Source: an uncultured bacterium (GTDB lineage: Bacteria; Patescibacteriota; Minisyncoccia; UBA6257; 2-01-FULL-56-20). From it: a DNA stretch of 64,000 nucleotides. Location of the stretch: NCBI GenBank assembly GCA_963718515.1, contig OY970354.1, positions 502,808-566,807 of the forward strand, given 5' to 3'. Below, piece after piece: positions 6,921 through 43,746 of the stretch (positions within the stretch are counted from its first letter, which is position 1; each line of letters opens with the position of its first letter). A program made the position numbers and the translations under genes. The notes beneath the pieces are model-generated. The model was not told the DNA's origin. It did no database searches and worked only from the letters and a program-made list of their open reading frames with translations.

Positions 6921-6940
6921 GGGTAGCGTGAAATTCCCAG

Positions 6941-6967
6941 AAAAACCGCCGCTTGCCGGTTTTTTGG
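6941..6967 (+). terminator. intrinsic terminator after rplS
   Basis: AAAAACCG...CGGTTTTTTGGTTTT: a GC stem followed by a T-run. Confidence 0.55.
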
Positions 6968-7003
6968 TTTTGATGATATACTTCTCGCAGTAGGAGGTTC
7001 TCT

Positions 7004-11121: not shown

Positions 11122-11574
11122 ATGGCATCCAAACGGGAATTCAAGCACATTCTTCGGAAAGGGGGTCTTAAAGCGACATCGGCGAGAGTTGCCATCCTTG
11201 AAACCTTGAAGGCGGTGAAAAAACCTATGAGCGCACAGGCGATCTTCGAAATGCTTGCCAAAGACCTTGATCGGGCGACGGTATATCGAACCGTAAAATC
11301 CCTTAAGGAAAAAGGCATCATCGTTCCTATCGATCTGCGGCATAACCACGCACATTACGAATTTGCGAACCTTGCCGAACACCATCACCTTATCTGTATC
11401 AAGTGCGGTAGAGTGGAGGATGTACATCACTGCGGCCTGGAGGAGGCGCAATCAAAAGTGCTCCGCTCATCGAAACATTTTGCGAAGATCACCGAACATG
11501 CCTTGGAATTCTACGGTGTATGCAGGAAGTGCGATCGGAACACGGGGATTGAACACGCCGATTTTCACGCTTAG
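11122..11574 (+). CDS. fur: Fur family transcriptional regulator
   Basis: Winged-helix segment ARVAILETL...MSAQAIFEML...ATVYRTVKSL, then HHHLICIKCGRVEDV and CRKC metal sites. Confidence 0.85.
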   Translation: MASKREFKHILRKGGLKATSARVAILETLKAVKKPMSAQAIFEMLAKDLDRATVYRTVKSLKEKGIIVPIDLRHNHAHYEFANLAEHHHLICIKCGRVEDVHHCGLEEAQSKVLRSSKHFAKITEHALEFYGVCRKCDRNTGIEHADFHA

Positions 11575-16728: not shown

Positions 16729-16770
16729 ACGGTCTCGACTTTCATCTCGTTTTCGCATAAAATATATCTC

Positions 16771-17779: not shown

Positions 17780-17781
17780 GA

Positions 17782-18645
17782 ATGATAGGGCACGAGGCGG
17801 CCATTCATGATCTGAAAGATCTATACGAGCGCGCGGCACTCGGCCACGGATATATTTTAGTCGGACCGGCGATGGTGGGAAAGCGTACGCTCGCGATATC
17901 GCTTGGACATTATCTTGAAAAGGGAGTGTTCGAGTTGCCGCGAGAAGGCGAAGTGCTTCAGGAGATGAAGTTGATAGACGTCGCATTCATGCGATCGCTC
18001 GACCCGGCCGCGAGCGGTGATTCGATCGGCATTGATGCCGCGCGCGAGGTAAAGAACTTTTTATGGCAAAAACCGAACGCGAGCGCGCGGCGGACGCTCA
18101 TTATTGATAATGCGGAGCTTCTTACGACGGAAGCACAGAATGCATTGCTCAAGATCACCGAAGAACCGCCGGCATCATCACTCCTTATATTAATAACCTC
18201 TGATATAGAAAGTATTTTGCCGACGATCGCCTCGCGCTTGCCAAAAATATATTTAGGAGCCGTGACGCAGACGGCAATCACGCAATGGCTCATCGATGGA
18301 GAAGGTATGACAAAAGCGAAGGCCGAGGCGTTGGCAAAGTGCTCTCTCGGTAAACCCGGCATCGCGTGGAGGTTGTTGCACGATGCGGTATTTCAGGAAA
18401 ATCTCGCGTTGGCGGAACAATTCCTAAAAACGGTGCCGACCGCACGCCGTGACTTCATTAAAAAACTTATCGAGCCCGACGACTTTAATTTACGCATATT
18501 CCTCGATGCTGTTATAATGACCCTTGCATGGGAGAAAACCTCAAAAACAAAAGCCGAGTTTTGGCACAAAACATTAAAATTGTATGAGGGCGTAAATAAC
18601 TTCAGCCTCAACCCACGACTTCAATTGGAAGCACTTATGAAATAA
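17782..18645 (+). CDS. holB: DNA polymerase III subunit delta'
   Basis: 287 aa. AAA+ clamp-loader pattern HGYILVGPAMVGKRTLA, then IIDNAELLTTEAQNALLKITEEPP and IASRLPK. Confidence 0.7.
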   Translation: MIGHEAAIHDLKDLYERAALGHGYILVGPAMVGKRTLAISLGHYLEKGVFELPREGEVLQEMKLIDVAFMRSLDPAASGDSIGIDAAREVKNFLWQKPNASARRTLIIDNAELLTTEAQNALLKITEEPPASSLLILITSDIESILPTIASRLPKIYLGAVTQTAITQWLIDGEGMTKAKAEALAKCSLGKPGIAWRLLHDAVFQENLALAEQFLKTVPTARRDFIKKLIEPDDFNLRIFLDAVIMTLAWEKTSKTKAEFWHKTLKLYEGVNNFSLNPRLQLEALMK

Positions 18646-18650
18646 TTATA

Positions 18651-19211
18651 ATGACCATTTCCGAACAGATAACAAAGGATCTCGAAGTCGCGCTCGGCAG
18701 CATTACGACAAAGCTCAAACAGGACTTTTCGCAAATCCGTGGCAACCGCCCGTCGCCGGACATGATCCAGGATATCCGGCTTAGCCTCTACGATCAGATG
18801 CTCACCATTCGCGAGCTTGGGTCGCTGAACGTTCTTCCGCCACGCACCATCCAGATCACCGTCTGGGATCCGGGCGCGATCGCCGCGATCATGAAGGCGA
18901 TCGACGATGCGCACCTTGGTCTCTCCACTAACAACGACGGCAACACGATCCGCGCGACGCTCTCGCCGCTCGGCGACGAACGCCGCGACGAAATGACGAA
19001 GCTCGTCAAAAAGATCTCCGAAGCGGCACGCATCCAGATCCGCGCACGACGCGACGACGCGATGAAGCGACTTAAGGATTCGGAAAGTAAAAAAGAGATA
19101 ACGGAAGACGATTCATTCCGTGGTAAAGAAAAGATCCAGAAGGCGACCGACAAGGCAAACGGGGAAGTGGAGGCAATGGTAGACGGAAAGTTAGCAGAGC
19201 TAGGCGAATAG
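18651..19211 (+). CDS. frr: ribosome recycling factor
   Basis: 186 aa. Motifs FSQIRGNRPSPDMI...IQITVWDPG...LSPLGDERRDEMTKLVKK...IRARRDDAMK. Confidence 0.9.
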   Translation: MTISEQITKDLEVALGSITTKLKQDFSQIRGNRPSPDMIQDIRLSLYDQMLTIRELGSLNVLPPRTIQITVWDPGAIAAIMKAIDDAHLGLSTNNDGNTIRATLSPLGDERRDEMTKLVKKISEAARIQIRARRDDAMKRLKDSESKKEITEDDSFRGKEKIQKATDKANGEVEAMVDGKLAELGE

Positions 19212-19255
19212 AAAAGCCGCCTCAGGATCGCTCCGGAGACGGCTTGTTGAATCGG

Positions 19256-19516
19256 TCAGGTTTTGGATGGCTGTGGCCACCTCGTCGCTAAGAAAAGCGA
19301 ATCGGCCGCCAACAGTAAGAAGGTTGCCCACGCGAACAGTGCTGCCTTGTTAAGGGAGTTAAGAGCGGGAGGGATATCTTTTATGACCCCCAGGTCGAGA
19401 CCCAGCATCACACCCAACACGCTGAAAAAGAGAAATCCGAGCGCCAGCGGTATTACCAACAATGCCGCCAGCAGGTGGAAGATCGGGATTTTTGGGATCT
19501 TCATGCGCACACGCAT
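19256..19516 (-). CDS. hypothetical small membrane protein, 86 aa
   Basis: Three hydrophobic segments. No recognisable family. Confidence 0.4.
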   Translation of the reverse strand: MRVRMKIPKIPIFHLLAALLVIPLALGFLFFSVLGVMLGLDLGVIKDIPPALNSLNKAALFAWATFLLLAADSLFLATRWPQPSKT

Positions 19517-19617
19517 TCCACACCTCTTAATTGAACTTATAGTATTAAAACAAATCAGGGAGTAAAGTCAAGTTTTATTATTGAGCCCCGTCTGTTAGAC
19601 TTAATGGGATTTTTACC

Positions 19618-20688
19618 GTGTCTATCCTTATTATCATTCTCGTTATCATTGGACTTTCATTCCTGATCCTCGGCCACGAAGCAGGACATTTTTTTGCGGC
19701 CAAGGCGTTCGGGTTAAAGGTGGATGAATTCGGTATCGGCTTCCCTCCGCGCATCGTGGCGAAAAAATTCGGTGACACGGAATACAGCATCAACTGGCTA
19801 CCCTTCGGCGGCTTTGTGCGCATCTCGGGCGAACGGGGAGAATTTGAGGGAGTCAGCCCGGAAAAAAATGACGTAACCAGCACAACGGACGCTACCGCCG
19901 ACACGGACCGCCTCTTCTACAAACAGCCCACGTGGAAAAAGAGTATCATCGTGCTCGCCGGAGTATTTATGAATTTTATCCTTGGGTGGTTGCTCATCGC
20001 CGCCGTGCTCATGGTCGGCGTGCCGCAAACACTCGTGATCTCGGGTATCGAAACGGGCTCGCCCGCGGCGGCGGCCGGCATCCAGGCGGGGGATATCGTA
20101 AAGGGATATACCGACTCGCAGAGCTTCATTAATTTTGTGGATGCACATAAAGGCACGCCGATAACACTTACCGTCACGCGTAACGATAAAGACGAGAGCT
20201 TCACCGTCACTCCGCGTACGGACGCGCCGCCCGACCAGGGCGCGCTCGGCGTGGCACTTGAGGACGGCGGCGCGGCGCGGGAAAATCCCTTCGCGGCGAT
20301 CCGGGACGGACTCGAGGACGCCGCGATCATCTCATGGCTTACCCTCCAGGCCTTCTATGAGCTAATAAAACAGCTCTTCGTCCACGCGACGATCCCTGCG
20401 GATGTCGTTGGTCCCGTCGGCATTTTCGGCATCGCAGAAGAGACGGGGAAGATCGGCCTGGCATATCTTTTACAATTCCTCGGTATCATCTCGATCAACC
20501 TCATGATTGTCAATTGTATCCCATTCCCGGCGCTCGACGGCGGGCGTTTCCTCATGATCATCATCGAAAAAATAAAGGGTTCTGCGCTGTCATATAAAAT
20601 GGAGACGGTGGTGAACGGCATTGGCTTCGCGCTCATCATCGCGCTCATGGTGGTGCTCACCGTACGGGATATACATGGGTTGCTATAA
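19618..20688 (+). CDS. rseP: RIP metalloprotease RseP (site-2 protease)
   Basis: GTG start. Has the HEAGH zinc motif (LGHEAGHFFAAKAFG), a PDZ segment (GSPAAAAGIQAGDIV) and the C-terminal NLMIVNCIPFPALDGG. Confidence 0.85.
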   Translation: MSILIIILVIIGLSFLILGHEAGHFFAAKAFGLKVDEFGIGFPPRIVAKKFGDTEYSINWLPFGGFVRISGERGEFEGVSPEKNDVTSTTDATADTDRLFYKQPTWKKSIIVLAGVFMNFILGWLLIAAVLMVGVPQTLVISGIETGSPAAAAGIQAGDIVKGYTDSQSFINFVDAHKGTPITLTVTRNDKDESFTVTPRTDAPPDQGALGVALEDGGAARENPFAAIRDGLEDAAIISWLTLQAFYELIKQLFVHATIPADVVGPVGIFGIAEETGKIGLAYLLQFLGIISINLMIVNCIPFPALDGGRFLMIIIEKIKGSALSYKMETVVNGIGFALIIALMVVLTVRDIHGLL

Positions 20689-24161: not shown

Positions 24162-25409
24162 TTATTCGTACCGGAGGGCATCGATCGGACTCTTTTTCGC
24201 CGCCTGGCGCGCAGGATAGATGCCGAAGGCAATGCCGGTAACGCTCGAGACCGCGACTGCGAGCAGAATCGCGGACAATGGAAATTCGAACGACCACGCG
24301 ACGGCGAGCGCCTTTGCGATGATTAAGTACGCCAGGCCGACCACAAGGCCGCCGATCGCGATGCCGATCACGCCGCCGATGAAAGTGAGCATTACCGATT
24401 CCACAAGAAATTGCTGGAGAATATCATTGTTCGTGGCACCGACTGCCTTGCGCAGGCCGATCTCTTTTGTGCGTTCGATCACCGAAACCAACATGATGTT
24501 CATGATGCCGATGCCGCCGACGATGAGTGAAATCGACGCGATTGCGGCGAGGAATAACGTCAAGATAGAGGTAATGTTGCCGAGCAATGAAAGCACATCC
24601 TGTTGGGTTTCAATGGTAAAATCATCCTTGTTTGGATCGGTGATCCCATGGTCCTGTTCCAAAATGGATTCCACACGCGCCTGCGCAAACGTGATGTTGT
24701 AGCTGCTGTTTGCCTGCACCATGATGTCGCTAAAATAATTGATACCGAGCATCTGCGTTTGCGCAACAGTGATGGGAACCATCACAAGATCATCCTGGTC
24801 AATGCCGAACGCGCCGGTGCCTTTTGCTGCAAGCACGCCGACCACTTTGAATTGTATGTTCTTTACCTCTATATATTGCCCGAGGGGATCCGATCCAGCC
24901 CCAAAGAGCGTATTGGCAAGGTCGGAACCGATCACCGCAACGTGATTATACGCTTGCACATCATCATCGGTGAATGGATATCCCTGTGCTACCACAAAGT
25001 TGCGTACACTAAAGAAATTAGCCGGTACGCCATCAAAGGTGATGGATTCACTGTTATCACCGAACGCCGCGTCAGCTTGTCCGCGCGCCTCCTCCGTGAC
25101 CGCCGCCACCGACGGGTCGCGCGAGAGCGCGTCCACATCCTGTTGGACCAAGCTTGTCACGATGATGCCCTGCGCCGCGGCAGGGGATGAGAATCTGCCA
25201 TTGCCCGATCCTCCGGGAATAATAATAATCAAATTCGATCCCAACCCTTGTACCTGGTTCAAAATATACGCCTGCGCAGAGGCGCCGATGGACATCAGAA
25301 TGATCACGGACGAGATGCCGATGACGATGCCAAGCATCGTCAAAAGCGACCGCATCTTGCCATGCTTCAGTGTCGCCTGTGACGACTTGATGAGATCGTT
25401 AATACGCAT
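24162..25409 (-). CDS. ABC transporter permease, MacB/FtsX family
   Basis: 415 aa. An N-terminal TM, a large extracytoplasmic domain and a C-terminal FtsX-type 3-TM bundle (RTKEIGLRKAVGAT). Confidence 0.85.
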   Translation of the reverse strand: MRINDLIKSSQATLKHGKMRSLLTMLGIVIGISSVIILMSIGASAQAYILNQVQGLGSNLIIIIPGGSGNGRFSSPAAAQGIIVTSLVQQDVDALSRDPSVAAVTEEARGQADAAFGDNSESITFDGVPANFFSVRNFVVAQGYPFTDDDVQAYNHVAVIGSDLANTLFGAGSDPLGQYIEVKNIQFKVVGVLAAKGTGAFGIDQDDLVMVPITVAQTQMLGINYFSDIMVQANSSYNITFAQARVESILEQDHGITDPNKDDFTIETQQDVLSLLGNITSILTLFLAAIASISLIVGGIGIMNIMLVSVIERTKEIGLRKAVGATNNDILQQFLVESVMLTFIGGVIGIAIGGLVVGLAYLIIAKALAVAWSFEFPLSAILLAVAVSSVTGIAFGIYPARQAAKKSPIDALRYE

Positions 25410-25424
25410 ACGCGAAGATATAAT

Positions 25425-26135
25425 TTATTTGGTAAATTGTTCTTTTGAATGGCGTGGATTTTTTACCGGCGTGTCGCTCTCGATGACGCCGTCCCGCAAA
25501 CGGATGATGCGATCAGCAAATTCCGCGGTGGCCGTCTCGTGCGTAACGAGTATCACGGTATGCCCTTCGTGATTCAACCCGTCGAGAATATCCATCACCT
25601 GAGCACCGGAAACAGAATCAAGATTTCCCGTCGGCTCGTCGGCAAAGATGATATCCGGATCGTTCACGAGGGCGCGCGCGATCGCGATGCGCTGTTTTTG
25701 TCCGCCGGACAATTTTGCCGTCTCGACGTGCAGTTTATCCGTGAGGCCCACGGAACGCACCGCGTCTTCGATCAGTTTTTTACGCGACGCCGGAGCCACG
25801 TTGGAATAGATGAGCGGTATCTCCACGTTTTCATATACCGTTAGGCGCGTAAGAAGATTGAACGATTGGAACACGAATCCCAGGCTTTTATTACGGACGT
25901 GCGCGAGTTCGACATCCGACATCTCATCGATATTTTTACCGTTGAACGTATACGTACCGCCCGTCGAGCGGTCGAGGAAGCTCAATATCTGCACAAGCGT
26001 CGACTTGCCTGAACCGGACGGCCCCATGATCGAAACAAAATCACCTTTTTTGATGGTGAAGGAAACGCCCCGAAGCGCGGAAGTCACTTCGCCTTCGTCG
26101 GTATAATCCTTTTTAAGGTCTTTAACGACGATCAT
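25425..26135 (-). CDS. ABC transporter ATP-binding protein (MacB/LolD-like)
   Basis: Walker [10 protein letters not shown], signature LSGGQKQR, Walker B IIFADEPT. Confidence 0.9.
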
Positions 26136-26140
26136 TCAAA

Positions 26141-27703
26141 TCAATCTTTAAGGCCGACATTTACGACCTGCTCGCCATCGGTCACGCCCGAAGTAACTTC
26201 CACATTCCCGTTCTGGTCGCGGATACCGAGTACGACGGGAACCTGCGTTTCTGTGCCATTATTGACCACCTCTACAAATGTACCCGTTGCATTCTGTATG
26301 ATCGCAAATTGTGGAAGGATCAAGGCGTTCTGGTCCGTCTGCGAGTTGATGTTGAGATTTGCGGTAAGGCCGCTCTTAATGCGTGGATCGGCGGTATCGA
26401 AGGAAACTTTCACGAGATAATCAACGACGCCGGACTCGATCGTTTGGGCGGGATCGATATAGAATACTTTTCCGGTGAAGGTTTCTCCGGGGAAGGCATC
26501 GAACGTCATATCCACAACATTCCCAATAGAAACTTTGCCGATATCCGTTTCCGGAACGTACGCATCAACCTCAAAATCGTCAGCGGAAATGATCGATGTT
26601 ATCGTTTGTCCCGCGGTGGCGAGCTGGCCGACCTTCGCATTCTGTACCGTGACGATGCCAGCGATGGGGGAAACGAGAGATGCGTCTGCGATATTCACCT
26701 GAATGCTTTGCACGTTCGCCTGCGCCGACGCAACCTGCGCCTGCTGTGCGGCGATCGCCTGCGCGGTGGAACCCGCGAGCGTCTCATTTAATTGCGCTTG
26801 TGCTTGCGCGACCGCCGCGCCCTCAGAAGCGATATTCTGCTGAAGCGTGTTGAGGTCGCTCGCGGCGGTATCCACTTCTGTCACGGCACTCGCGATATCG
26901 GTCTTATAGGCACTCGCCGTCGCGGGAGTCAGATTATTTGCATCAACGATCGCCGTCGCGTCGGTCGTAAACATTATCTCGATCACGGAAAGATGTTCCG
27001 TCGAGGAAGCGAGTGATTGCAAAAGCGTTGAGGTAGGAGATGTCGGTGAAAGAAGCGCTAATTCGTTCTGCCAATTATCCAGTTCCTCTGTGACCTGTTC
27101 ACGTTCGGAGTTGGCATTATTAAGAATTTGGGAGTCGTTGACGGTGAAGGTGAGTTGTGGGGCATTCGAGTCGGGTTCGCTATAAAATGCCGATATCTGA
27201 TTGCGAACCGCATCGTTCGCTTTTGCGTATGCGCTCGTCACGGCATCATCGATGCTCGCGTAACTGTTCGCCAGTGTCTGCTCGGCGCTCGTGACCGCCG
27301 CCTGCGAGACTTGGACCGCCTGTGGCGTCGGCCCCGCCTGGAGATTCTCGAGCGTCGCCTGCGCCGCATCGACGCTTGCCTGCGCCTGTGCAAGTTGTGC
27401 CTGCAAGCCGCTCGTATCGAGGCTCACCAGCGCATCGCCGGCATTCACACTATCTCCGGCATTCTTATATACCGCGGCGACAGTGCCGCCGGTCTCAAAC
27501 GAAAGATCGAGGCTCTGCACCGGTGTGGTATTGCCGGTCACACTCACCACTTCGGTGATCGTGCCCTGCGTGACGGTGACAAATTGATACTTGCCGCCAG
27601 CGCTATGCGATATCAAAAAATAAATCCCTCCGACTACCACGACTAAAAGAACGACCGCGCCGATCGTTTTCTTTCTTCCGAATTTTGTTATTATTCTCCC
27701 CAT
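26141..27703 (-). CDS. efflux periplasmic adaptor (HlyD/MacA family)
   Basis: 520 aa. An N-terminal TM anchor, a long A/Q-rich coiled coil and a C-terminal beta-barrel segment (DAYVPETDIGKVSIGN). Confidence 0.75.
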   Translation of the reverse strand: MGRIITKFGRKKTIGAVVLLVVVVGGIYFLISHSAGGKYQFVTVTQGTITEVVSVTGNTTPVQSLDLSFETGGTVAAVYKNAGDSVNAGDALVSLDTSGLQAQLAQAQASVDAAQATLENLQAGPTPQAVQVSQAAVTSAEQTLANSYASIDDAVTSAYAKANDAVRNQISAFYSEPDSNAPQLTFTVNDSQILNNANSEREQVTEELDNWQNELALLSPTSPTSTLLQSLASSTEHLSVIEIMFTTDATAIVDANNLTPATASAYKTDIASAVTEVDTAASDLNTLQQNIASEGAAVAQAQAQLNETLAGSTAQAIAAQQAQVASAQANVQSIQVNIADASLVSPIAGIVTVQNAKVGQLATAGQTITSIISADDFEVDAYVPETDIGKVSIGNVVDMTFDAFPGETFTGKVFYIDPAQTIESGVVDYLVKVSFDTADPRIKSGLTANLNINSQTDQNALILPQFAIIQNATGTFVEVVNNGTETQVPVVLGIRDQNGNVEVTSGVTDGEQVVNVGLKD

Positions 27704-27828
27704 ATGGTGTAGTATACCATAGAAGCCGCAGAGACCTATCTCTTATTGCCGCCATAATAGCACTTATCCACAGGGTTAGTTAAGTGAATTAACAGTTATG
27801 GTTTATAATTAAAGTACGTTCACGATCC

Positions 27829-28629
27829 ATGGAAAACATCATTGAGGTAGATCACCTCGTCAAAAAATTCGGGGATTTCACCGCGGTTGAAGATATATCG
27901 TTTCACGTCAAAAAAGGCGAAATCTTCGCTTTTTTGGGGCCGAATGGGGCAGGGAAGTCCACCACGATCAAGATGCTGACCACCATCCTTAACCCCACGG
28001 GCGGGAGCATCGTGCTGAATGGGCACAACGCGGCAAAGGATGCCGATGACGTGCGGCATTCCTTCGGCATCGTCTTTCAGGATCCCAGCCTGGACGACGA
28101 CCTTACCGCGCTCGAGAACATGAACCTCCACGGCGTGCTCTACGGCGTGCCGAGCAAGGTTCGCAAAGAGCGGATAGAGCAATTACTTAATTTTGTGGAA
28201 CTCTGGGACCGTCGCAACAGCCAGGTGAAAGATTTCTCCGGCGGCATGAAACGCCGTCTCGAGATCGCGCGCGGATTGTTGCATCATCCAGCCGTATTGT
28301 TCTTGGATGAACCAACACTCGGCCTTGACCCGCAGACACGCAACCACATGTGGAGCTATCTCCAGGAGCTCAACAAGACCGAAGGTATCACGGTGTTCTT
28401 CACCACCCATTATATGGAAGAGGCTGAGCGCATCGCCCAGCGGATCGCGATCATTGATCACGGGAAGATCATCGCGTCCGGCACCGCCGATGAATTAAAG
28501 AAAAAAACAGAGACCAATTCCCTGGAAGACGCATTCCTAAAATTGACCGGTACGGTGATCCGCGATGAAGATGTGAGCTCGACCGATCGTTTGCGCTTAC
28601 AAAGTAAAATGTGGCGCGGGCGGAGATAA
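27829..28629 (+). CDS. ABC transporter ATP-binding protein (DrrA/ABC-2 type)
   Basis: Walker A GPNGAGKST, signature FSGGMKRR, Walker B LFLDEPT. Confidence 0.9.
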   Translation: MENIIEVDHLVKKFGDFTAVEDISFHVKKGEIFAFLGPNGAGKSTTIKMLTTILNPTGGSIVLNGHNAAKDADDVRHSFGIVFQDPSLDDDLTALENMNLHGVLYGVPSKVRKERIEQLLNFVELWDRRNSQVKDFSGGMKRRLEIARGLLHHPAVLFLDEPTLGLDPQTRNHMWSYLQELNKTEGITVFFTTHYMEEAERIAQRIAIIDHGKIIASGTADELKKKTETNSLEDAFLKLTGTVIRDEDVSSTDRLRLQSKMWRGRR

Positions 28630-28641
28630 CATCAAAATTCC

Positions 28642-29388
28642 ATGAAAACGATCTATATATTATGGCTCCGCGAGATCAAGCGCTATTTGCGGTCGCGGTC
28701 GCGCATCATCGGTTCGCTCGGACAGCCGATCCTGTTCCTGCTTGCGCTCGGATATGGCCTTGGCTCGGTGTTTGCAAAAGCGGGGGAGGGGAATTATTTC
28801 CAATTCCTTGCGCCGGGCATCATCGGCATGAGCATCATCTTTACGGCGATATTCTCGGGCGTCCAGATAATCTGGGACCGGCAGTTCGGATTTCTTAAGG
28901 AGACGCTTGTCGCGCCCGTGAACCGTCTCAATATCATGATCGGCCGCACGCTCGGCGGAGCGACCGTTGCCACCATGCAGGGCCTCCTCGTGCTTATCCT
29001 CGTGACAATCTTCGGGTTCCGCCCTTACAACTGGGCGCTTGTGCCAGTCGCGATTCTCTTTATGCTGCTTGTCGCGCTCCTCTTCGCCGCGCTCGGCGCG
29101 ATGATCGGATCTCTGCTTGACGACATGCAGGGATTCCAGCTCATCATGAACTTCCTCGTAATGCCACTTTTCTTCCTCTCCGGCGCACTTTTTCCACTGA
29201 ACGGATTGCCTGCGATCCTTAGCGGCATCGTCAAGTTCGATCCACTTTCGTATGGCGTTGATTCATTTCGCATCCTGCTCGTGAACTCCGGCAGTTTTGG
29301 CCTCGGCGTCGACTTTACCGTCCTCGCCGTCGTCACCGCCATTTTCCTTGGCTTTGGCAGCTATTTTTTCTCGAAGATACAGGTATAG
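28642..29388 (+). CDS. ABC-2 type transporter permease
   Basis: 248 aa with 6 predicted TM helices, directly downstream of the ATPase. Confidence 0.8.
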   Translation: MKTIYILWLREIKRYLRSRSRIIGSLGQPILFLLALGYGLGSVFAKAGEGNYFQFLAPGIIGMSIIFTAIFSGVQIIWDRQFGFLKETLVAPVNRLNIMIGRTLGGATVATMQGLLVLILVTIFGFRPYNWALVPVAILFMLLVALLFAALGAMIGSLLDDMQGFQLIMNFLVMPLFFLSGALFPLNGLPAILSGIVKFDPLSYGVDSFRILLVNSGSFGLGVDFTVLAVVTAIFLGFGSYFFSKIQV

Positions 29389-29410: not shown

Positions 29411-30310
29411 ATGTCGGAAATAACATCCCTCACCATCGGAACCAGAGGAAGCAAGCTTGCGCTTGCCCAAACCCAATTGGTTGCGGAAGCCTTGAAGCAA
29501 AAACATCCCGGGATCGAGATAAAAACGAAAGTTATCGTGACGAAGGGAGACGTCAATCAATCCCCAATACCTCTCGATACCATAGGGAAAAATTGGTTCA
29601 CTGCCGAAATAGAAGATGCCCTTCTAAGGGGTGAGATTGACATTGCGGTCCATAGCATGAAAGATCTGCCGCCGGATATTTCGAGAGATCTCATTACGCT
29701 CCCGGTGCTCGAACGCGCCGACGCGCGCGACGTTCTCATTACAAGATCAGGGGCTTCGCTGAAAGACCTTCCGCATGGCGCCGTCATTGGCACCGACAGC
29801 ATCCGGCGGAAAATATTACTCCTCGAACAAAGGCCCGATCTTGTGGTAAAGAGCATCCGGGGAAATGTCGACACCCGGCTACAAAAATTACGCGATGAAC
29901 CATATGATGCGATCATGCTCGCCGCCGCCGGATTGCAACGCCTTGGGATGGCGGACCGTATTACTGAATTTTTAGATCCATCGAAATTTATCCCCGCCAT
30001 CAGCCAGGGAATATTGGCCGCACAAACAACGGACCGGGGCGACGCGAGCGGTGTATTGGCGATGCTCAGGCGTATTCAACATATGCCCACGCAGGTGGCC
30101 GCCGAAGTCGAACAGCTATTTTCACAGACGGTCGGCGGCGGCTGTAAAGTTCCTATAGGATGCTATGCGCGAATTGCCGATGATCTTATCCACATCGATG
30201 CCTTTATCCAAGACGCCGATGGGGAAGTGATAAAAAGGAAATCGAAAGTTGACGAGATTACCTCTGCGCCAACCATCGGCGAGGTACTGGCACGGGAATT
30301 GTTGGCATGA
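29411..30310 (+). CDS. hemC: hydroxymethylbilane synthase
   Basis: Motifs IGTRGSKLALAQT, AVHSMKDLP, RGNVDTRL and the cofactor cysteine in GGGCKVPIG. Confidence 0.9.
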   Translation: MSEITSLTIGTRGSKLALAQTQLVAEALKQKHPGIEIKTKVIVTKGDVNQSPIPLDTIGKNWFTAEIEDALLRGEIDIAVHSMKDLPPDISRDLITLPVLERADARDVLITRSGASLKDLPHGAVIGTDSIRRKILLLEQRPDLVVKSIRGNVDTRLQKLRDEPYDAIMLAAAGLQRLGMADRITEFLDPSKFIPAISQGILAAQTTDRGDASGVLAMLRRIQHMPTQVAAEVEQLFSQTVGGGCKVPIGCYARIADDLIHIDAFIQDADGEVIKRKSKVDEITSAPTIGEVLARELLA

Positions 30311-31044
30311 AACGGATAGTGCTGACGCGAAGTGCCTCGGGAAATCGTGCTTGGAAAGATTATTTTGTGGCTCGGGGATTCTATGTGTATTTATTTCCGA
30401 CGATCGAAATGATCCCCGTGAAGCCGAGTGCCAAGGTGATCGATGTGTTAAAAAACATCGATGCTTTTGATTGGGTGATCATCACGAGCATCGAAGCCTT
30501 GCGCGCCGCGCAAACCATCGCGAAACAATCGGACATCAACTTGTCGGCACATCATATAAGGTCGCTCGGGGTACTGGGGAAAGAAACCGCGGTCGCCGCG
30601 CGTGCCATGGGGTATCGCGTCGCTTTCCGGCCCCCCAGGCCGATGAGTGAGACCCTAGCCCAAGAACTTCCCCTGGCCAAGAAGTCTTCGGTACTATTCT
30701 TACGAAGCACGATTGCTTCGCGGACGATCCCAAATGTCCTTACCAAACGAGGCGCGAAAGTGACCGATCTCGCTGTGTATCGAACGGTATCCGTTGGCAC
30801 TTCCGATCTTCGTTTCGAGCGGTTATTAAAAGAAGGGGCTATTCACTATCTCACCTTTGCAAGCCCTTCGGCAGTGCAAGGTTTTTTTAAACGCATCGAC
30901 GGGAAAATATCTAAAAAAGCACTCGCTATTCCGGTCGTTGCAATCGGGCCCACCGTGGCCAAAACTCTCAAAAAATGGGGCTTTAAAGATATTCATGTTG
31001 CGAACGATCCCAACCCCAAGAGTATGGCAGAAGCCATGGTATAA
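30307..31044 (+). CDS. hemD: uroporphyrinogen-III synthase
   Basis: 245 aa with a HemD-like two-lobe pattern. Its start overlaps the hemC stop (ATGA), and its position within a heme operon supports the call. Confidence 0.7.
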   Translation: MKRIVLTRSASGNRAWKDYFVARGFYVYLFPTIEMIPVKPSAKVIDVLKNIDAFDWVIITSIEALRAAQTIAKQSDINLSAHHIRSLGVLGKETAVAARAMGYRVAFRPPRPMSETLAQELPLAKKSSVLFLRSTIASRTIPNVLTKRGAKVTDLAVYRTVSVGTSDLRFERLLKEGAIHYLTFASPSAVQGFFKRIDGKISKKALAIPVVAIGPTVAKTLKKWGFKDIHVANDPNPKSMAEAMV

Positions 31045-31724
31045 TGACCCCTATGGATAGCCATCCCTATCACCATTATTTATTTTTTAATCTAGGCAAC
31101 GAGTTCTATCAATTGCCAAAAGGGGAACAAGATCAGCTGAAAATGGAATTTTTGGCATTCCTTTCCGCCGTTGATCACCTCATCATCGTTTCCTATGCGA
31201 CGCTCGGTTTGAAAGCGAAAACAACGTTTATGCTATGGTGTCGGGCGAAAGATCCGGGAGAGATATCCATAATGCTCGGCCATCTGTTCCGTACGAAACT
31301 CGGCCGCTACCTCAGCGTCGAATACACATTTTTTGGTATCGTACGTAATTCCGAATATAGCGGGCGAACCGGGAAGCCGGAACAAGTGATGCAAAATTAT
31401 CCGGACCGGCTTCCGTATTTTATCCTCTATCCATTCACGAAAACTTCGGAGTGGCACCTGCTTGATCGCGAGAATCGTTCCGCCATTATGGGACAGCATA
31501 TAAAAGTCGGCCTGGGCCATCCGGAAATCAGACAATGCCTTTTATACTCATACGGCGTTGATGATTACGAATTCATCGTGTCGTATGAGACAAAGACGCT
31601 GGAAGAGTTTCAGGACCTTGTGATCGAGATGCGAAGGACCGTCGGACGCAAATATACGCTCGTCGACACCCCGACATTCACGTGCATCTATAAACCATTG
31701 GCGGAGCTTATAGGATCCCTGTGA
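31044..31724 (+). CDS. hemQ: chlorite dismutase family protein, probable coproheme decarboxylase (HemQ/ChdC)
   Basis: 226 aa. Motifs YFILYPFTKTSEWHLLDRENRSAIMGQHIKVG and YSYGVDDYEFIVSYET are typical of the Cld/HemQ family. Confidence 0.75.
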   Translation: MTPMDSHPYHHYLFFNLGNEFYQLPKGEQDQLKMEFLAFLSAVDHLIIVSYATLGLKAKTTFMLWCRAKDPGEISIMLGHLFRTKLGRYLSVEYTFFGIVRNSEYSGRTGKPEQVMQNYPDRLPYFILYPFTKTSEWHLLDRENRSAIMGQHIKVGLGHPEIRQCLLYSYGVDDYEFIVSYETKTLEEFQDLVIEMRRTVGRKYTLVDTPTFTCIYKPLAELIGSL

Positions 31725-32737
31725 CGATGTTCAATGACAGCTTTTTGCGCGCATGCCGGAGAGAACCAACCGAGCGCGTTCCGGTATGGTTCATGCGGCA
31801 GGCGGGCAGATCCCTCCCCGGCTATCGTGCGATCCGCCAGGAATACGACGTCCTTACCATTGCGCGGACGCCCGAACTTGCGGCGCGGGTGAGCATGGAA
31901 CCGGTGGGACTCCTCGGCGTTGATGCCGCCATTTTATTTGCCGATATCATGCTGCTACCGCTCGCCATGGGCGTCGATCTGCGGATCGTGGAAGCGGTCG
32001 GCCCGGTCATCGAAAGACCGATCGCGAGCGCCCAAGACATAAAAACACTTCTGCCATTCGATCCTGCACGCGCTGATTATCTGCAAAAAACAATAAAAAT
32101 TCTTCGCACGGAACTGCAGATCCCTGTTATAGGATTTTCCGGCGCGCCATTTACGCTTGCGAGCTATCTTATTGAAGGAAAGCCGACGAGGCAATGGATA
32201 AAAACGAAGCGCTTTATGATGGAAGAGTCTGAAGCATGGAATGAACTCATGAAAAAACTTTCCGACGCGATCATTGGATATCTTTCGTTGCAGATCGATG
32301 CGGGCGTTCAGGCAATACAACTTTTCGATAGTTGGGTGGGATGTCTCAGCCCCGCCGATTACCGGACGTACGTACTGCCTCATGTGCAATATATTTTTTC
32401 TGCGCTCAAACAAAAAAATATTCCGCGCATCCACTTTGGTACCGACACCGGCGGTATGCTCGCGGACTTTTCAAATGTTGATTGTGAGGTGATCGGGCTC
32501 GACTGGCGAATAGATCTTGGATACGCAAAGACGATGATCGGCGCCAAAGCATTGCAAGGGAATTTGGATCCCGTAGCCCTCCTCGGAAACGAATCCGTCA
32601 TACGGAAGAATGTCGACCGTATCTTTGCATCGCTACCCTCGCGGCAGGGGTTTATATTCAATCTCGGGCATGGCGTTTTGCCCGAAACGGACGACAAAAA
32701 AATAAAATATTTAGTGGATTATATCCATGGAAAATAA
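31721..32737 (+). CDS. hemE: uroporphyrinogen decarboxylase
   Basis: Has the UROD signature VPVWFMRQAGRSLPGY, plus FDSWVG and GNLDP. A GTG at 31721 or the ATG at 31727 is the start. Confidence 0.9.
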   Translation: MTMFNDSFLRACRREPTERVPVWFMRQAGRSLPGYRAIRQEYDVLTIARTPELAARVSMEPVGLLGVDAAILFADIMLLPLAMGVDLRIVEAVGPVIERPIASAQDIKTLLPFDPARADYLQKTIKILRTELQIPVIGFSGAPFTLASYLIEGKPTRQWIKTKRFMMEESEAWNELMKKLSDAIIGYLSLQIDAGVQAIQLFDSWVGCLSPADYRTYVLPHVQYIFSALKQKNIPRIHFGTDTGGMLADFSNVDCEVIGLDWRIDLGYAKTMIGAKALQGNLDPVALLGNESVIRKNVDRIFASLPSRQGFIFNLGHGVLPETDDKKIKYLVDYIHGK

Positions 32738-33671
32738 CCCCGACGAACGCACGACCGGTGTTGTCCTCATGACCTACGGCTCGGCGACGACCGCCGAACA
32801 CGTCCCCGAATATTTTGAACATATCTATCATGGCAAAGCTTCCGCTGACTTGATCAGAGATTTTGAGGAGCGCTACCGATTGGTCGGGCATTCGCCACTG
32901 ACGGAGATAACCCAAAAACAAGCACATTTATTGGAGGATATGCTCGGTCAAAAAGGGAAGGGGCGTTATATCGTCCGCGTGGGAATGCTTCACTCAAAGC
33001 CATTCATCGAGGAGGCTGTTCGGGATTGCAAAAATGCCGGCGCAGAGCGCTGTATCGGCATCATTCTCTCGCCACAGTTCTCATCGTTTATCATGGAAGC
33101 GTACCGCTCCCGGTTTACCCTCGCCGCCCGCGAGTGCGGCTTTCGGGAAGAGGATATTTTTGTGGTTAAGCCGTGGCCAACGGAACCGAACTTTATACGA
33201 TTGCTCGGCGATCATATCCGGGCATCACTCAAAGAGCTGGAGCGCGCTCATCAGGGAAAAGTTCCCGTAATATTCACCACTCACAGCCTGCCCAAACGCG
33301 TGGTTGAAAAAGATCCGGGCTATCTCGACCAATTGCGATCGACCATAGACGCCACTGTCGAATATATCGCGGATCCCACGCTCGAATGGTATGCCGGATA
33401 TCAAAGCGCAGGGCACACTTCCGAAGAATGGCTGAAGCCGGACCTTGCGGATATTCTTGCTGACCTTCAGAAAGATGGAAAAACAACGGTCCTTATCGCG
33501 CCGATACAATTTTTGGCCGACCATCTGGAGATTCTATACGATCTTGATATAGCGGCGAAAAAACAATGTGAAGACCTCGGGATCGCCTATCACCGCATTC
33601 TATTGCCAAATATCGACCCATTATTCATTAAAAGCCTTGCGTCGCTGGTCGAAAATGCATATGACCATTGA
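32727..33671 (+). CDS. hemH: ferrochelatase / coproporphyrin ferrochelatase
   Basis: 314 aa. GVVLMTYGS, IFTTHSLP and QFLADHLEILYDLD match the ferrochelatase family. Confidence 0.85.
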   Translation: MENNPDERTTGVVLMTYGSATTAEHVPEYFEHIYHGKASADLIRDFEERYRLVGHSPLTEITQKQAHLLEDMLGQKGKGRYIVRVGMLHSKPFIEEAVRDCKNAGAERCIGIILSPQFSSFIMEAYRSRFTLAARECGFREEDIFVVKPWPTEPNFIRLLGDHIRASLKELERAHQGKVPVIFTTHSLPKRVVEKDPGYLDQLRSTIDATVEYIADPTLEWYAGYQSAGHTSEEWLKPDLADILADLQKDGKTTVLIAPIQFLADHLEILYDLDIAAKKQCEDLGIAYHRILLPNIDPLFIKSLASLVENAYDH

Positions 33672-33692
33672 ATAGGGTATAATTAAAAAATC

Positions 33693-34409
33693 ATGAGCAA
33701 TCTTGAATGGAACAAAGTAACGTGGTATTCGAAGCTTCTAGCCCTTATCCTTTTTGTGGCCTTGCCGTTCCTTTTCTTTTATTACGGAACGCAGTATGGA
33801 GAAACGGTTTTTTATATTCAGCAAAACGCGCCGACAAGCACGGCGGTCACCAGTATGGGCTCTGGTTACTATAACGACCCCGCCGAATGGCAAAATGACA
33901 CCAATAACACAAAGGGGGGATTCAGCATTAGCTATCCGACGGATTTTTCCTACGCAGATAATTATCCCGCAACACCTTCCACCGATTGGCGGATAAATTC
34001 CAACAACGAGCCGGGGGTTAAATATTTTACCCTTACCGTACCGCCTTCTTTTGAACCACAGACGAACTTTGCAGATGCGACGCTGACCGTCGGTGCAAGC
34101 GGCAATAACGGCGCGGTGTCGCAATGCATGACGCCCGATCAAAGCGGGGGATCGGTCACCGCGACCTCAAGCGTAACGATCAATGGGATCCCATTCATCG
34201 TCTTTAAATCGAATAGCGCAGGTGCAGGAAGCATCTACGAGACGACGAGCTATCGCATGCTCCATGCTGGGCAATGCTACGCCATCGAATACACGGTACA
34301 CTCGAGCCAAATCGCGAATTGGCCTTCTTCATATAACCTCCAACCATTCAGCGAAAGCCAGATAGATTCATTGATGAACACGATCGTCGGCACATTTAAA
34401 TTCCTTTAA
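33693..34409 (+). CDS. hypothetical secreted protein
   Basis: 238 aa with an N-terminal TM/signal anchor. Its module opens with GGFSISYPTDF, like the protein at 7743..8900. Confidence 0.55.
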   Translation: MSNLEWNKVTWYSKLLALILFVALPFLFFYYGTQYGETVFYIQQNAPTSTAVTSMGSGYYNDPAEWQNDTNNTKGGFSISYPTDFSYADNYPATPSTDWRINSNNEPGVKYFTLTVPPSFEPQTNFADATLTVGASGNNGAVSQCMTPDQSGGSVTATSSVTINGIPFIVFKSNSAGAGSIYETTSYRMLHAGQCYAIEYTVHSSQIANWPSSYNLQPFSESQIDSLMNTIVGTFKFL

Positions 34410-34424: not shown

Positions 34425-35114
34425 ATGAAACGGACCAATAAGATCATCGTCATTGTAGTGCTCGTGGTCATCGTCCTGTTTGGCGTCGGGCAGTTTTTCG
34501 CATCATCGAACATCGTCGCACCGGGGGCGAACCAGACCACATCCACCGCAACACAAGTACCGCCCATCCCGGATGCCACGCAGGTCGTCGCGTATGTTCC
34601 TTTGCCGCCAGCGAGCTCCACGCCGACCGAAAGCGGCTCCTGCTGGACGAGTTCCATCGCCGCACCGTTCCGCACTGACGCATGGCGTTGTGCGGTGGGG
34701 AATGGCATTAGCGATCCATGCTTCCAAATCCCGAACAGTAATAATTTGCTGTGCGGCGTGAACCCGACCGAGCCCAATTCGACATCTACGTTCGTATTGA
34801 AGCTTACCCAGGCACTTCCGACGCCCGAGGCCCCGCAAGTAGTGCCACCCTCCGATTGGGCATGGCTCGTGGAGCTTCAGGATGGGACTCTCTGCACACC
34901 ATTCACGGGGACATTGCCGTTCACTGCCGATGGGCAATCCGCCAACTATGGCTGTGCGCCGGGACCGCTCGGCACTAACCTTCTTATTTTTGGCGAGCTG
35001 AATGCATCGAGTAGTGTCTGGACGGCAAATATAGGAACGCTTTCACAAACGACATCAAGCCTGCCAAGTATCGCGACGTCATCCACTGTTCCGGTCATCA
35101 CGGTGTGGCAATAA
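34425..35114 (+). CDS. hypothetical secreted cysteine-containing protein
   Basis: 229 aa with an N-terminal TM anchor and 7 Cys in the ectodomain. It has no CXXCH motif. Confidence 0.55.
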   Translation: MKRTNKIIVIVVLVVIVLFGVGQFFASSNIVAPGANQTTSTATQVPPIPDATQVVAYVPLPPASSTPTESGSCWTSSIAAPFRTDAWRCAVGNGISDPCFQIPNSNNLLCGVNPTEPNSTSTFVLKLTQALPTPEAPQVVPPSDWAWLVELQDGTLCTPFTGTLPFTADGQSANYGCAPGPLGTNLLIFGELNASSSVWTANIGTLSQTTSSLPSIATSSTVPVITVWQ

Positions 35115-41481: not shown

Positions 41482-42651
41482 CTATTTGGTGCTGATTGCC
41501 ATCAGCCCTTCCGCGATCTTTTCCGCAGCGCCCGGAATGAAGAACGCGCTCGAGGCGGCGGTCATCTTTGCGCGAAAGTCGGTGTCGCCTAAAATTTGTT
41601 TGAGTTGGGTAAAGAAAATGCCGGGCAGAAGATTCGCCTCTTCTATGACGATCGCGGCGCCAGACTTGGCGAATTCGTAGGCGTCTACGCGTTGGTGATC
41701 GTTGGCGGATTCGGTGAGTGGAATGAGGATGGCCGGGAGGCCGAATGCCGCAAGCTCACACACGGAACTCCCGGAGCGCGCGACGACGAGGTCCGCGGCG
41801 GTGAGCGCGGTGACCATGTCATCGCCAAAGTATCCGACAGCAACGTAGCGATACGTTATTGGCGCGTTCGCGAGCGCGACCGAAGATAATTTTTGCACTT
41901 CTGTAAAGTTCGCCGCGCCGGTCTGATGTAGCACCGAGGTTTGGGTAACAAACTGCTGTAGATTGCCCAATATAAATTCATTGATGCGCTGTGCGCCTTG
42001 CGAGCCACCGAGGATGAGCGTGAGCGGCTGGGCCCTGTCGAATCCCATGATCTCCTTTGCCGCGTCTTTTGAGGTCCGCTCGCCGAGCAATTCGGTGCGT
42101 AGCGGCTGGCCACTTACTTCCACTTTTGCCCGGGCAAAGTACGCCGCCGCGCGCTCAAAACTTACGAATACTTTTGTGGCAAAGCGGCCGGAGGCAATAT
42201 TAGTAAGTCCCGGCTGGGCATCGGAATCATGGATCGCAATGGGGATGCGATAGAACCATGCGGCAACGACGACGGGCAAGGCTCCTGTCCCGCCTTTTGA
42301 AAACACAACGTCGGGCATGATGAAATAAAGCTTAAAAAGTGCTTGCAAAAATCCGATCACGAACTTTGGCGCATCCAAAAAGTTCTCCACGGAAAAATAG
42401 CGGCGCACCTTGCCGGACACGATCGGATGGACGGGAATACCACGATTGGAAAGTAAAACACTATATGCATCGTTCGGGCCAAGATATGCAAATTCTATGG
42501 GAGCTTTCAATTCCGCAAGTCGCTTCTCCAGTACTTCGGCAACGGCAAGCAGTGGATAGACGTGTCCCCCGCTCCCTCCGCCAGTGAAGACCACCCTGAA
42601 TTTTGTATCACTCATACCATTAGCTATATATTTAACTATACCGCGAAACAT
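41482..42651 (-). CDS. murG: undecaprenyldiphospho-muramoylpentapeptide beta-N-acetylglucosaminyltransferase
   Basis: Has FTGGGSGGHVYP and a C-terminal glycosyltransferase 28 domain. The likelier start is MSDTKF at 42615; the longest ORF starts at 42651. Confidence 0.85.
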   Translation of the reverse strand: MFRGIVKYIANGMSDTKFRVVFTGGGSGGHVYPLLAVAEVLEKRLAELKAPIEFAYLGPNDAYSVLLSNRGIPVHPIVSGKVRRYFSVENFLDAPKFVIGFLQALFKLYFIMPDVVFSKGGTGALPVVVAAWFYRIPIAIHDSDAQPGLTNIASGRFATKVFVSFERAAAYFARAKVEVSGQPLRTELLGERTSKDAAKEIMGFDRAQPLTLILGGSQGAQRINEFILGNLQQFVTQTSVLHQTGAANFTEVQKLSSVALANAPITYRYVAVGYFGDDMVTALTAADLVVARSGSSVCELAAFGLPAILIPLTESANDHQRVDAYEFAKSGAAIVIEEANLLPGIFFTQLKQILGDTDFRAKMTAASSAFFIPGAAEKIAEGLMAISTK

Positions 42652-43746
42652 TGAGGGCTATGCCGCTCATCGTGACGAATACCGCGAGCGCCGTACCGCC
42701 ATAGCTTACAAATGGCAATGGGACACCGGTGAGCGGAATGATCCCCGAGATCGATGCCATATTGACGAATGCCTGCAAGGCGATGACCGTGCCAAACCCG
42801 ATCAAGAGCAATCGCCCGAACTGGTCCCCCACCTTTCGCGCGAGCCAGAACATGCGGAATGTGACGATCGCGAAAAGTGCGACGAGTGCGCCGGCACCGA
42901 CGAATCCCAGCTCTTCCGCGACGACGGCAAATATAGAGTCATCGATCGGCGTCGGAAGGTAACTGCCTTTTGTGGCGGATTCGCCATACCCCACGCCGAA
43001 GAATCCACCCGACCCGATCGCGATCAGGGCCTGGTCGACCTGATAGTTTTGCCCCTGCGCATTCTGGCTTTGGTCAAGATATCCCAGAATGCGCGCACGG
43101 CGGTACGGCGTCACTGCGATCACGAGCGTTATCGCGACAAGCGCGATTGCGATGATTCCCAATACATATTTCCACGGGGCACCGCTCACGAAATACACGA
43201 TGAGACCCGAGCCCAAAAGGATCGCGACCGTACTCGTCGCCGGCTGAAGGATTAACAAAACGGCGATAAGTCCGGAAATGATCGCAAATGGCAAAAGTCC
43301 TGACTGAAAGTCGGTGGCGCGCTTGAACTTTGGATTCGAAAGCCATGCGGCGAGATACATAATATAGGTGAGTTTCATGAGTTCCGCGGGTTGGAAGCTC
43401 AGCGGCCCAAGCGAAGCCAGCGATTCGTGCTGTTCACAAGCGAACCGAGTGGCGTGAAGACGAGCACGAGCGCGATCAAACTTATAAGTAAAAGGATGAA
43501 TGCAATATTTTTGAATTTCTGATAGGGAATAAAATATCCCAATAAAAAACCCACGATACCGATAGAGAGTCCAAAAAGGATCTGATGCTCAAGATAATAA
43601 TAGCTGTTGTTGAACTGCGTCTTCCCCAAGTCGGAGGACGCCGAAGCGAGCATCGCAAGCCCGAACACCAAAAGTATGAAAAACGCTGCCATCAAAAAAT
43701 AATCAGGCTTACCGGCACTTGTCCTTCGTGAGGTCGTTGTGGCCAT
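42632..43746 (-). pseudogene. ftsW: SEDS family peptidoglycan polymerase FtsW/RodA, one frameshift as assembled
   Basis: The N-terminal 115 aa end in NRWLRLG. The protein continues as PLSFQPAELMKLTYIMYLAAWLS in the next frame. The shift is at the CCC run 43406-43408. Confidence 0.8.

Follow-up and report, generated by a model that had tools for sequence, protein, structure and literature searches.

A conserved hemC-hemD-hemQ-hemE-hemH operon points to coproporphyrin-dependent heme b synthesis in a subset of Patescibacteria

The usual picture of bacteria of the candidate phyla radiation (CPR), or Patescibacteria, is one of symbionts that live by fermentation and make no tetrapyrroles. In a survey across GTDB, too, the Patescibacteria are listed as a phylum without heme biosynthesis genes. 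The 64,000-nucleotide stretch analysed here (the window; positions 502,808–566,807 of contig OY970354.1, which spans 829,201 bp) nevertheless carries five consecutive heme genes, hemC-hemD-hemQ-hemE-hemH. Does this cluster belong to a CPR genome, could it produce heme, where would its precursor come from, and what would use the product? Our analysis makes it probable that the cluster is a functional coproporphyrin-dependent module for heme b that has been maintained within the Patescibacteria and was not recently acquired. A literature search found no published description of this operon in CPR; of the pathway genes, PMC12577380 names hemY (K00231) alone, for a few CPR metagenome-assembled genomes (MAGs).

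The five genes lie on the forward strand and overlap at each junction, by 4, 1, 4 and 11 nt in order from hemC to hemH. The first, hemC (29411–30310, 299 residues), encodes a hydroxymethylbilane synthase (porphobilinogen deaminase) that scores 313.7 bits against TIGR00212 (cut-off 164) and also matches PF01379 and PF03900. The uroporphyrinogen-III synthase encoded by hemD (30307–31044, 245 residues) covers the whole PF02602 HEM4 profile (E = 1.1e-48, 165.8 bits against 27.5). It is the most divergent protein of the set, with 29–43% identity among relatives, and all NCBIfam equivalog models match it below their own cut-offs. The product of hemQ/chdC (31044–31724, 226 residues), a predicted coproheme decarboxylase of a Patescibacteria-specific subfamily, matches positions 4–187 of the 189 in PF06778 (152.9 bits, E = 1e-44). 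It is followed by hemE (31721–32737, 338 residues), a uroporphyrinogen decarboxylase gene whose product reaches 392.2 bits against TIGR01464 (cut-off 302.95) and matches PF01208 at E = 1e-115, and by hemH/cpfC (32727–33671, 314 residues), a predicted coproporphyrin III ferrochelatase of the soluble Firmicutes type that scores 176.4 bits against TIGR00109 (cut-off 124.6). Curated equivalog cut-offs are exceeded by three of the five proteins. Family scores this large in five neighbouring open reading frames (ORFs) make a chance origin impossible, and each of the five enzymes is, by sequence, orthologous to a well-known family.

These gene identities agree with those proposed in an initial annotation made from the sequence, and its five ORFs and their overlaps (30307–30310, 31044, 31721–31724 and 32727–32737) were reproduced in the ORF list. 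The hemQ/hemE overlap holds if hemE starts at the GTG at 31721; an independent call in L001 begins hemE at an ATG at 31727, which gives a protein of 336 residues and a 2-nt gap after hemQ. The same annotation described the genes as translationally coupled. The overlaps stand, and it is from them that we infer the coupling itself; co-transcription of the five genes would be expected.

The assignment to the coproporphyrin-dependent branch depends on HemQ and HemH. The nearest solved structures to HemQ are coproheme decarboxylases, with 9mhq first at E = 2e-23, and its closest solved relatives, the actinobacterial ChdC proteins (9mhq and Corynebacterium diphtheriae 6xub), share with it the Y-P-F tyrosine and a proximal His 23 residues later. 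With the C. diphtheriae numbering calibrated through the W183Y mutant chain, HemQ Y129 aligns with the catalytic Y135 (the Tyr of the ‘VYPF’ motif) and H152 with the proximal His. The roles of Y135 as the catalytic residue and of H118 as the distal base in the C. diphtheriae enzyme are described in PMC10427985. HemQ Q164 occupies the column of the distal Arg, R173, of Nitrospira defluvii chlorite dismutase, and Y129, K133, H152 and Q164 do not vary among 35 aligned relatives. The chain 4m09, which has Gln in the R173 column and is presumably the R173Q variant of the N. defluvii enzyme, outscores the other N. defluvii chlorite dismutase chains against HemQ. Since the distal Arg position is Gln164, chlorite dismutase activity is not expected, and we rejected this function for HemQ on that ground. 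Firmicutes ChdC, to which HemQ is only remotely related (E ~1e-5 to 5loq and 6fxj), carries a Gln at the distal position as well. Loss of the catalytic residues of HemQ had been named at the outset as something that would weaken the proposal; HemQ retains the catalytic Tyr and the proximal His and is without the Arg of chlorite dismutases.

For HemH, the best solved relatives are the coproporphyrin ferrochelatases (CpfC) of Listeria monocytogenes and Bacillus subtilis (E = 8.5e-53), compared with 2e-24 for human protoporphyrin ferrochelatase. The protein is the short soluble form, without a C-terminal extension. Its Y17, H186 and E268 align with Y12, H182 and E263 of the L. monocytogenes enzyme, and R45, Y46, S53 and Y124 of that enzyme, which, together with its R29, we take to be residues that bind the coproporphyrin propionates, align unchanged with R49, Y50, S56 and Y126 of HemH. 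These alignments mark HemH as a predicted coproporphyrin, rather than protoporphyrin, ferrochelatase. The late enzymes are the same as in the coproporphyrin-dependent pathway of Firmicutes such as B. subtilis and L. monocytogenes, where HemE is followed by CpfC and ChdC. Firmicutes have their heme genes in a hemEHY arrangement, whereas the order here is C-D-Q-E-H. With a ChdC-type HemQ and a CpfC-type HemH in one operon, the coproporphyrin-dependent branch first proposed for this locus is borne out.

The chemistry of the module can be deduced from the established roles of these families. HemC would convert four porphobilinogens to hydroxymethylbilane, which HemD would cyclise to uroporphyrinogen III and HemE would then decarboxylate to coproporphyrinogen III. 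The oxidation of coproporphyrinogen III to coproporphyrin III would be carried out by an enzyme encoded outside the window, or would occur spontaneously in air. The CpfC-type HemH would insert Fe2+ to form coproheme, and the ChdC-type HemQ, using H2O2 and its catalytic Tyr, would decarboxylate two propionates to give heme b. Heme b, together with heme o made by CyoE, would then most likely be delivered to a cytochrome bo3-type quinol oxidase.

Whether the operon belongs to the genome in which it was found can be judged from its surroundings. HemQ homologues 53–86% identical to the window protein number at least 120 among the matches listed, and those with names belong to Candidatus Paceibacterota, Patescibacteria group and Saccharimonadales. 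A complete 16S rRNA gene of 1546 nt, without insertion, stands alone in the window (4530–7003 region) with no 23S gene downstream; the 930 nt that follow it match nothing in Rfam and lack a convincing ORF. On a 483-kb contig from the Joint Genome Institute (JGI) metagenomes (L004), the operon lies between the same neighbours as in the window, inverted relative to its flanks, and the shared neighbours are 76% (GltX), 68% (MurC), 86% (PDDEXK), 88% (MacB-type ATPase) and 91% (DUF763) identical. The nearest homologues, this synteny partner, the contig size and the unlinked 16S rRNA gene support the CPR-like context that had been read from the sequence at first.

An operon from another organism, for example from Chloroflexota or Firmicutes, could also have been joined to a CPR contig through chimeric assembly or contamination. 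Glycyl-tRNA synthetase (GlyRS), MurA and FtsW are split across frames in the window, which suggests an error-prone assembly. However, an independent short-read Logan assembly of run ERR11630394 reproduces the operon and the flanks on either side identically on a 21-kb contig, the GC content and third-position GC content (GC3) of the heme genes are inside the range of the neighbouring genes, and the nearest homologues of HemQ, HemE and HemH sit in the Patescibacteria clade. Together with the flanking MacB ATPase, PDDEXK and GltX genes of L004, these results give no sign of a chimeric join at 29.4–33.7 kb. We rejected an assembly chimera on the independent assembly, the L004 synteny and GC3, and give a foreign source for the operon next to no credence.

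The distribution of the operon was examined in 160 loci from GTDB species representatives and JGI metagenomes, plus further contigs, which were annotated by tblastn with window, Escherichia coli and locus-derived queries. The window arrangement, hemC-D-Q-E-H (type A), is found in ~26 further distinct loci, among them loci from Paceibacterota, Kaiserbacteria and MAGs labelled Saccharimonadia. It is present on long Patescibacteria contigs of 483, 567, 492 and 169 kb, in unrelated neighbourhoods. In a second arrangement (type B), found in Levyibacteriota, Saccharimonadales and several MAGs labelled ‘Gammaproteobacteria’, hemH-hemB is divergent from hemC-D-Q-E. A neighbour-joining tree of concatenated HemQ, HemE and HemH (82 loci, 831 columns, 60 bootstraps) supports the monophyly of type A in 59/60 bootstraps and that of type B in 60/60. 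Both types, plus four allied loci, form one group in 60/60, to which Chloroflexota, Gemmatimonadota, Armatimonadota and others do not belong. Median identities to the window proteins are 60% for type A, 49% for type B and 42% for the remaining loci. The operon is thus conserved in a subset of the CPR. It had been noted at the outset that the operon would be unremarkable if it were routine in its lineage; it is indeed common in this subset, but published accounts state that CPR lack or scavenge heme.

The tree also bears on whether the operon was recently acquired by lateral transfer from monoderm Firmicutes or Actinobacteria, the groups classically known for this pathway. Such an origin would be consistent with the solved structures, among which HemH is closest to Listeria and Bacillus CpfC and HemQ to actinobacterial-type ChdC. 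The identity to these solved proteins is modest, however, with a best E of 2e-23 for HemQ and only ~1e-5 to Firmicutes ChdC, whereas dozens of Patescibacteria sequences are 53–86% identical. The operon occupies the same chromosomal site in the diverged relative L004 and shows no compositional anomaly. Because the Patescibacteria modules form a well-supported clade (60/60) apart from other phyla, a recent import appears very improbable; an ancient transfer into the ancestor of these CPR lineages could have occurred. The nearest relatives outside CPR are clustered heme operons in MAGs of Chloroflexota, Gemmatimonadota, Acetothermia and WOR-3, which share the HemQ-containing set and are 36–44% identical over concatenated HemQ, HemE and HemH. 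These relatives often hold the full hemA-C-D-B-Q-L-E-(Y)-H set in one cluster, whereas the Patescibacteria clade has lost hemA, hemL and, in type A, hemB from it. In Dehalococcoidia clusters, hemY lies between hemE and hemH, which is not so in the Patescibacteria clade.

The related loci vary in several further respects. In the neighbourhoods of 21 CPR loci, no extra gene is recurrent except the type-B hemB and an FTR1/EfeU-like iron permease, which directly follows hemE in type-B clusters that lack hemB (L011 11670–12497, L012 4300–5148, L016 11669–12487, L140 3749–4561 and L166 1552–1728). The permease was called by reading its two REXXE-type motifs, and its position suggests a coupling between iron uptake and the ferrochelatase reaction. 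Saccharimonadia-like type-B clusters contain a hemC-hemD fusion of ~555 residues (L092 8270–9937, L179 8246–9916). In two Paceibacterota type-A loci, L031 (9419–10001) and L036 (9418–10001), only ~580 nt separate hemC from hemQ and tblastn finds no HemD there; the protein may be truncated or very divergent. The ‘Gammaproteobacteria’-labelled MAGs with a type-B or allied cluster (L034, L009, L011, L012, L016, L020 and L038) group with Levyibacteriota and Saccharimonadales in the tree; L034 is a complete 915,171-bp chromosome (OZ246414.1). A ‘Thaumarchaeota’-labelled MAG bears a bacterial-type hemACDBQLEH cluster. Both labels are probably wrong.

A candidate consumer of the heme emerges from the same comparison. 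In six related loci, the heme genes abut an operon for a cytochrome bo3-type quinol oxidase. In the type-A locus L039, cyoA-B-C-D-E-hemC-D-Q-E-H run on one strand with short gaps or overlaps, and HemE and HemH are 63% and 59% identical to those of the window; in L167, also type A, cyoE is followed after a 50-nt gap by hemCDQEH. The other four comprise hemCDQE-cyoABCDE-NDH2 in the Saccharimonadales locus L045, cyoABCDE adjoining the type-B cluster of L034, NDH2-cyoEDCBA-hemE-hemQ-hemCD in L092/L093, and cyoBA divergent from hemCDQE in L145. At least 120 CyoB relatives of at least 68% identity are present among the matches listed, several of them named Paceibacterota. Because heme and cyo genes are contiguous in these relatives, a bo3 oxidase is the most plausible client of the pathway; judged by this comparison, the heme consumer in the window organism would most likely be a bo3-type quinol oxidase encoded elsewhere in its genome. 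Operons of the same cyoABCDE type are known from soil Saccharibacteria, Doudnabacteria and Parcubacteria (PMC8407418, PMC6031116). Nicolas et al. 2021 (PMC8407418) described cyo operons in soil CPR, and Starr et al. 2018 (PMC6031116), who presented the first genome from soil Saccharibacteria, proposed that heme for the bo3 oxidase is scavenged; neither paper reports genes for making heme. HemQ also lies within a few kb of genes for a heme-copper oxidase and heme O synthase in Gemmatimonadota and Fervidibacter (L063, L069, L070, L076, L077 and L079), so the linkage between HemQ and an oxidase is not unique to CPR.

Several observations weigh against a functional heme b module in this organism. 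HemQ lacks a distal His base, since C. diphtheriae H118 (in ‘NRSHLP’) aligns with Gly110, and it falls under both curated NCBIfam cut-offs, with 109 against 235 bits for NF042928 (HemQ_actino) and 55.6 against 253 for PRK12276, the model missed on the Firmicutes side. The replacement of H118 places HemQ outside the actinobacterial ChdC subtype and, with the two low scores, is the reason for regarding it as a separate subfamily. Firmicutes ChdC is likewise without a distal His of the H118 type (PMC10427985). In HemH, Tyr34 stands where L. monocytogenes CpfC has R29. Searches with CyoA–E, NDH-2, CydAB, KatG and KatE (tblastn) gave no match in the 64-kb window, so the heme-cyo super-operon seen in L039 is not encountered here. 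The cyo genes adjoin only two of the ~26 type-A loci, and on two Paceibacterota contigs cyoABCDE occurs without a heme gene closer than 10 kb. The 120 matches listed for each of CyoB and HemB include none on the source contig, which says little, since both families have at least that many members at ~68–70% identity or more. The initial annotation had seen no obvious hemoprotein and no CXXCH cytochrome in the 64 kb, and the tblastn and Pfam scans concur: CXXCH is confined to ribosomal protein L31 and a GlyRS fragment.

The pathway as seen is also incomplete. As first noted, hemA, hemL, hemB and hemY are missing from the window by tblastn, and the ~26 type-A loci, with flanks of up to 10 kb and including those on the contigs of 169–567 kb, contain none of the four. 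The Firmicutes pathway includes CgoX/HemY, whereas two Dehalococcoidia HemY queries gave no tblastn match in the 64 kb or beside the type-A loci (CgoN was not specifically searched), and Pfam scans of the window show no amine-oxidase domain. These absences admit two explanations.

In the first, hemA, hemL, hemB and a coproporphyrinogen oxidase (CgoX/HemY or CgoN) lie elsewhere in the 829-kb genome, so that heme would be made de novo from glutamyl-tRNA and the five-gene operon would be only the clustered part of the pathway. Many non-CPR relatives (L038, L044 and L157) keep hemY outside the cluster, or lack it there, although the rest is complete; hemB is clustered with heme genes in type-B Patescibacteria (names such as Saccharimonadales and Levyibacteriota); and gltX is present in the window. 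CgoX elsewhere in the genome is possible because the supplementary table of PMC12577380 lists hemY for a few CPR MAGs. A credible hemA or hemL, however, stands beside the heme genes in none of ~52 CPR-clade loci, and hemB and hemY in no type-A locus; the nominal exceptions L126 and L110 rest on short HemE fragments, and L126 is a full non-CPR-type cluster. Since a full A-C-D-B-Q-L-E-H cluster is frequent in non-CPR relatives, the absence of these genes from the clusters of reduced genomes may be real loss, and the GTDB survey cited above also speaks against a complete set. We regard a complete de novo pathway as quite possible, although short of probable.

Alternatively, the pathway could be truncated and primed by a host, with porphobilinogen (type A) or 5-aminolevulinate (ALA; type B) imported from the host or the surroundings. 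HemC, HemD and HemE would then run as described, coproporphyrinogen III would auto-oxidise in air, and CpfC and ChdC would finish the synthesis. It fits this view that no cluster of the CPR clade contains hemA or hemL and no type-A cluster contains hemB or hemY, even with flanks of up to 10 kb; so does the stepwise pattern in which type B retains hemB, without hemA and hemL, and type A does not. The CPR literature describes an episymbiotic, scavenging lifestyle, and the auto-oxidation of porphyrinogens in air is established chemistry. On the other side, no ALA or porphobilinogen transporter was identified, the adjoining ABC systems being generic exporters, and we know of no organism that lives by porphobilinogen salvage. 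Known partial heme pathways usually keep the last steps only: Haemophilus has a ferrochelatase-only set, and trypanosomatids have the last three enzymes. Like those of such auxotrophs, an incomplete set here would need an imported intermediate, but the module spans five steps from porphobilinogen, an unusual entry point. Absence within 20 kb around the operon also says little about an 829-kb genome. Import of an early precursor is thus conceivable but doubtful, and its extension to a widespread subset of soil Patescibacteria, with a host-primed, CgoX-independent pathway that loads a cytochrome bo3 oxidase, seems to us rather unlikely.

The genes next to the operon raise the separate idea that the product is not heme b for the organism's own enzymes, and that the module serves chlorite detoxification or the export of coproporphyrin or coproheme. 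A drrA/drrB-type ABC-2 exporter pair (27829–29388, forward strand; TIGR01188 drrA 329.5 bits, TIGR01247 drrB 207.4 bits) ends 22 nt upstream of hemC and may be co-transcribed with the operon, and the window shows no consumer for heme. The pair is, however, missing from the corresponding position in L004, and no copy was detected alongside the other type-A operons, only distant DrrA-like matches several kb away in L041 and L061. The distal Arg that is essential in chlorite dismutases is Gln164 in HemQ and the ChdC catalytic Tyr is invariant, while contiguity with cyoABCDE in relatives argues for in-house use of the heme. We consider export or detoxification highly improbable. A MacA/MacB-like exporter triplet (YknX-type adaptor, ATPase and FtsX-type permease) is encoded on the reverse strand at 24162–27703. 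Similar triplets lie within 0–3 kb of heme or cyo genes in the window, L004 (12767–16329), L039 (~15957–19618) and L178 (14853–18819); a tie to heme efflux would be pure speculation. NCBIfam names the adjoining ABC systems only as generic MacAB-like and DrrAB-like exporters, and given these names and the lack of a conserved DrrAB pair beside the operon, we rejected them as heme transporters.

Downstream, two ORFs follow hemH on the same strand with gaps of 21 and 15 nt, as first annotated. Neither protein has a Pfam or NCBIfam match of its own. The first, unk1 (33693–34409), is predicted to be a membrane-anchored PsbP-like extracytoplasmic protein from the PsbP-like matches of family members; the second, unk2 (34425–35114), is a putative membrane-anchored Cys-containing protein without family matches. 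Single-sequence AlphaFold2 models place an N-terminal helix at residues 3–34 of unk1 and 4–26 of unk2, with predicted local distance difference test scores of 42.7 and 40.7 (the unk2 model is unusable). The unk1 family has 1263 representatives at 50% clustering and a conserved C-terminal domain of ~165 residues with an invariant Cys pair (C145 and C195). A few members match PsbP_2 or PsbP, or bear extra MliC or cupredoxin domains. The unk2 protein is 77% identical to one in L004 and is undetected beside the other related operons; homologues of unk1 and unk2 are found near a heme operon only in L004, where they are oriented divergently from hemC. A perfect TATAAT hexamer lies 12–17 nt before the unk1 ATG (33676–33681) and another 20–25 nt before the drrA start (27804–27828 region). 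From these positions, the leaders may be very short, and drrAB-hemCDQEH and unk1-unk2 may each have a promoter of their own. A promoter and terminator scan of 27.6–35.3 kb found fewer promoter-like sites than in shuffled sequence and gave no usable operon boundary. Because unk1-unk2 is divergent in L004, absent elsewhere and preceded by a TATAAT box, it is probably a transcription unit apart from the heme module.

The remainder of the window is unremarkable in content. Outside the operon, Pfam scans of ~37 of the ~66 larger ORFs, plus precomputed Pfam calls for 26–42 kb, identify solely housekeeping functions, and the housekeeping genes of the window include aminoacyl-tRNA synthetases, a release factor, ribosome recycling factor, SecDF, MurC, MurG, FtsW, ComEC and TrmD. 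A Fur-family regulator at 11122–11574, 18 kb from the operon, has PerR as its best NCBIfam match (84.6 bits, under cut-off); it might sense peroxide or iron, which would be relevant to an H2O2-using ChdC. GlyRS is spread over at least four overlapping frames (14013–14423, 14456–14944, 14815–15201 and 15071–15439), a MurA-like gene is split (15707–16111 and 16087–16728), and a 438-residue opposite-strand ORF at 16294–17610 has no family match. The split frames at 14013–17610 look like a run of assembly indel errors; real pseudogenes are less likely. FtsW (42632–43746) is divided into a 115-residue N-terminal ORF and a 248-residue ORF that matches profile positions 108–353, and the release-factor ORF (2060–2806) starts at position 97 of the PCRF profile. 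Both observations likewise point to frameshifts in the source assembly.

What makes this operon notable is its presence in a lineage reported to lack or scavenge heme, its linkage to cyo genes in relatives and its consistently truncated gene set. Part of the CPR would, on this evidence, be able to run at least the steps from macrocycle to heme, which offers a concrete answer to how their oxidases could gain a cofactor. The lack of hemA and hemL near the module, and of hemB and hemY as well in type A, raises the question of whether a host feeds tetrapyrrole precursors to these cells. A host-derived precursor, if true, would bear on cultivation media, through supplements of ALA, porphobilinogen or heme, and on how CPR adapted to oxic soil. 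In that case, cross-feeding of tetrapyrrole intermediates would be an adaptation of ultra-small symbionts to oxic soil.

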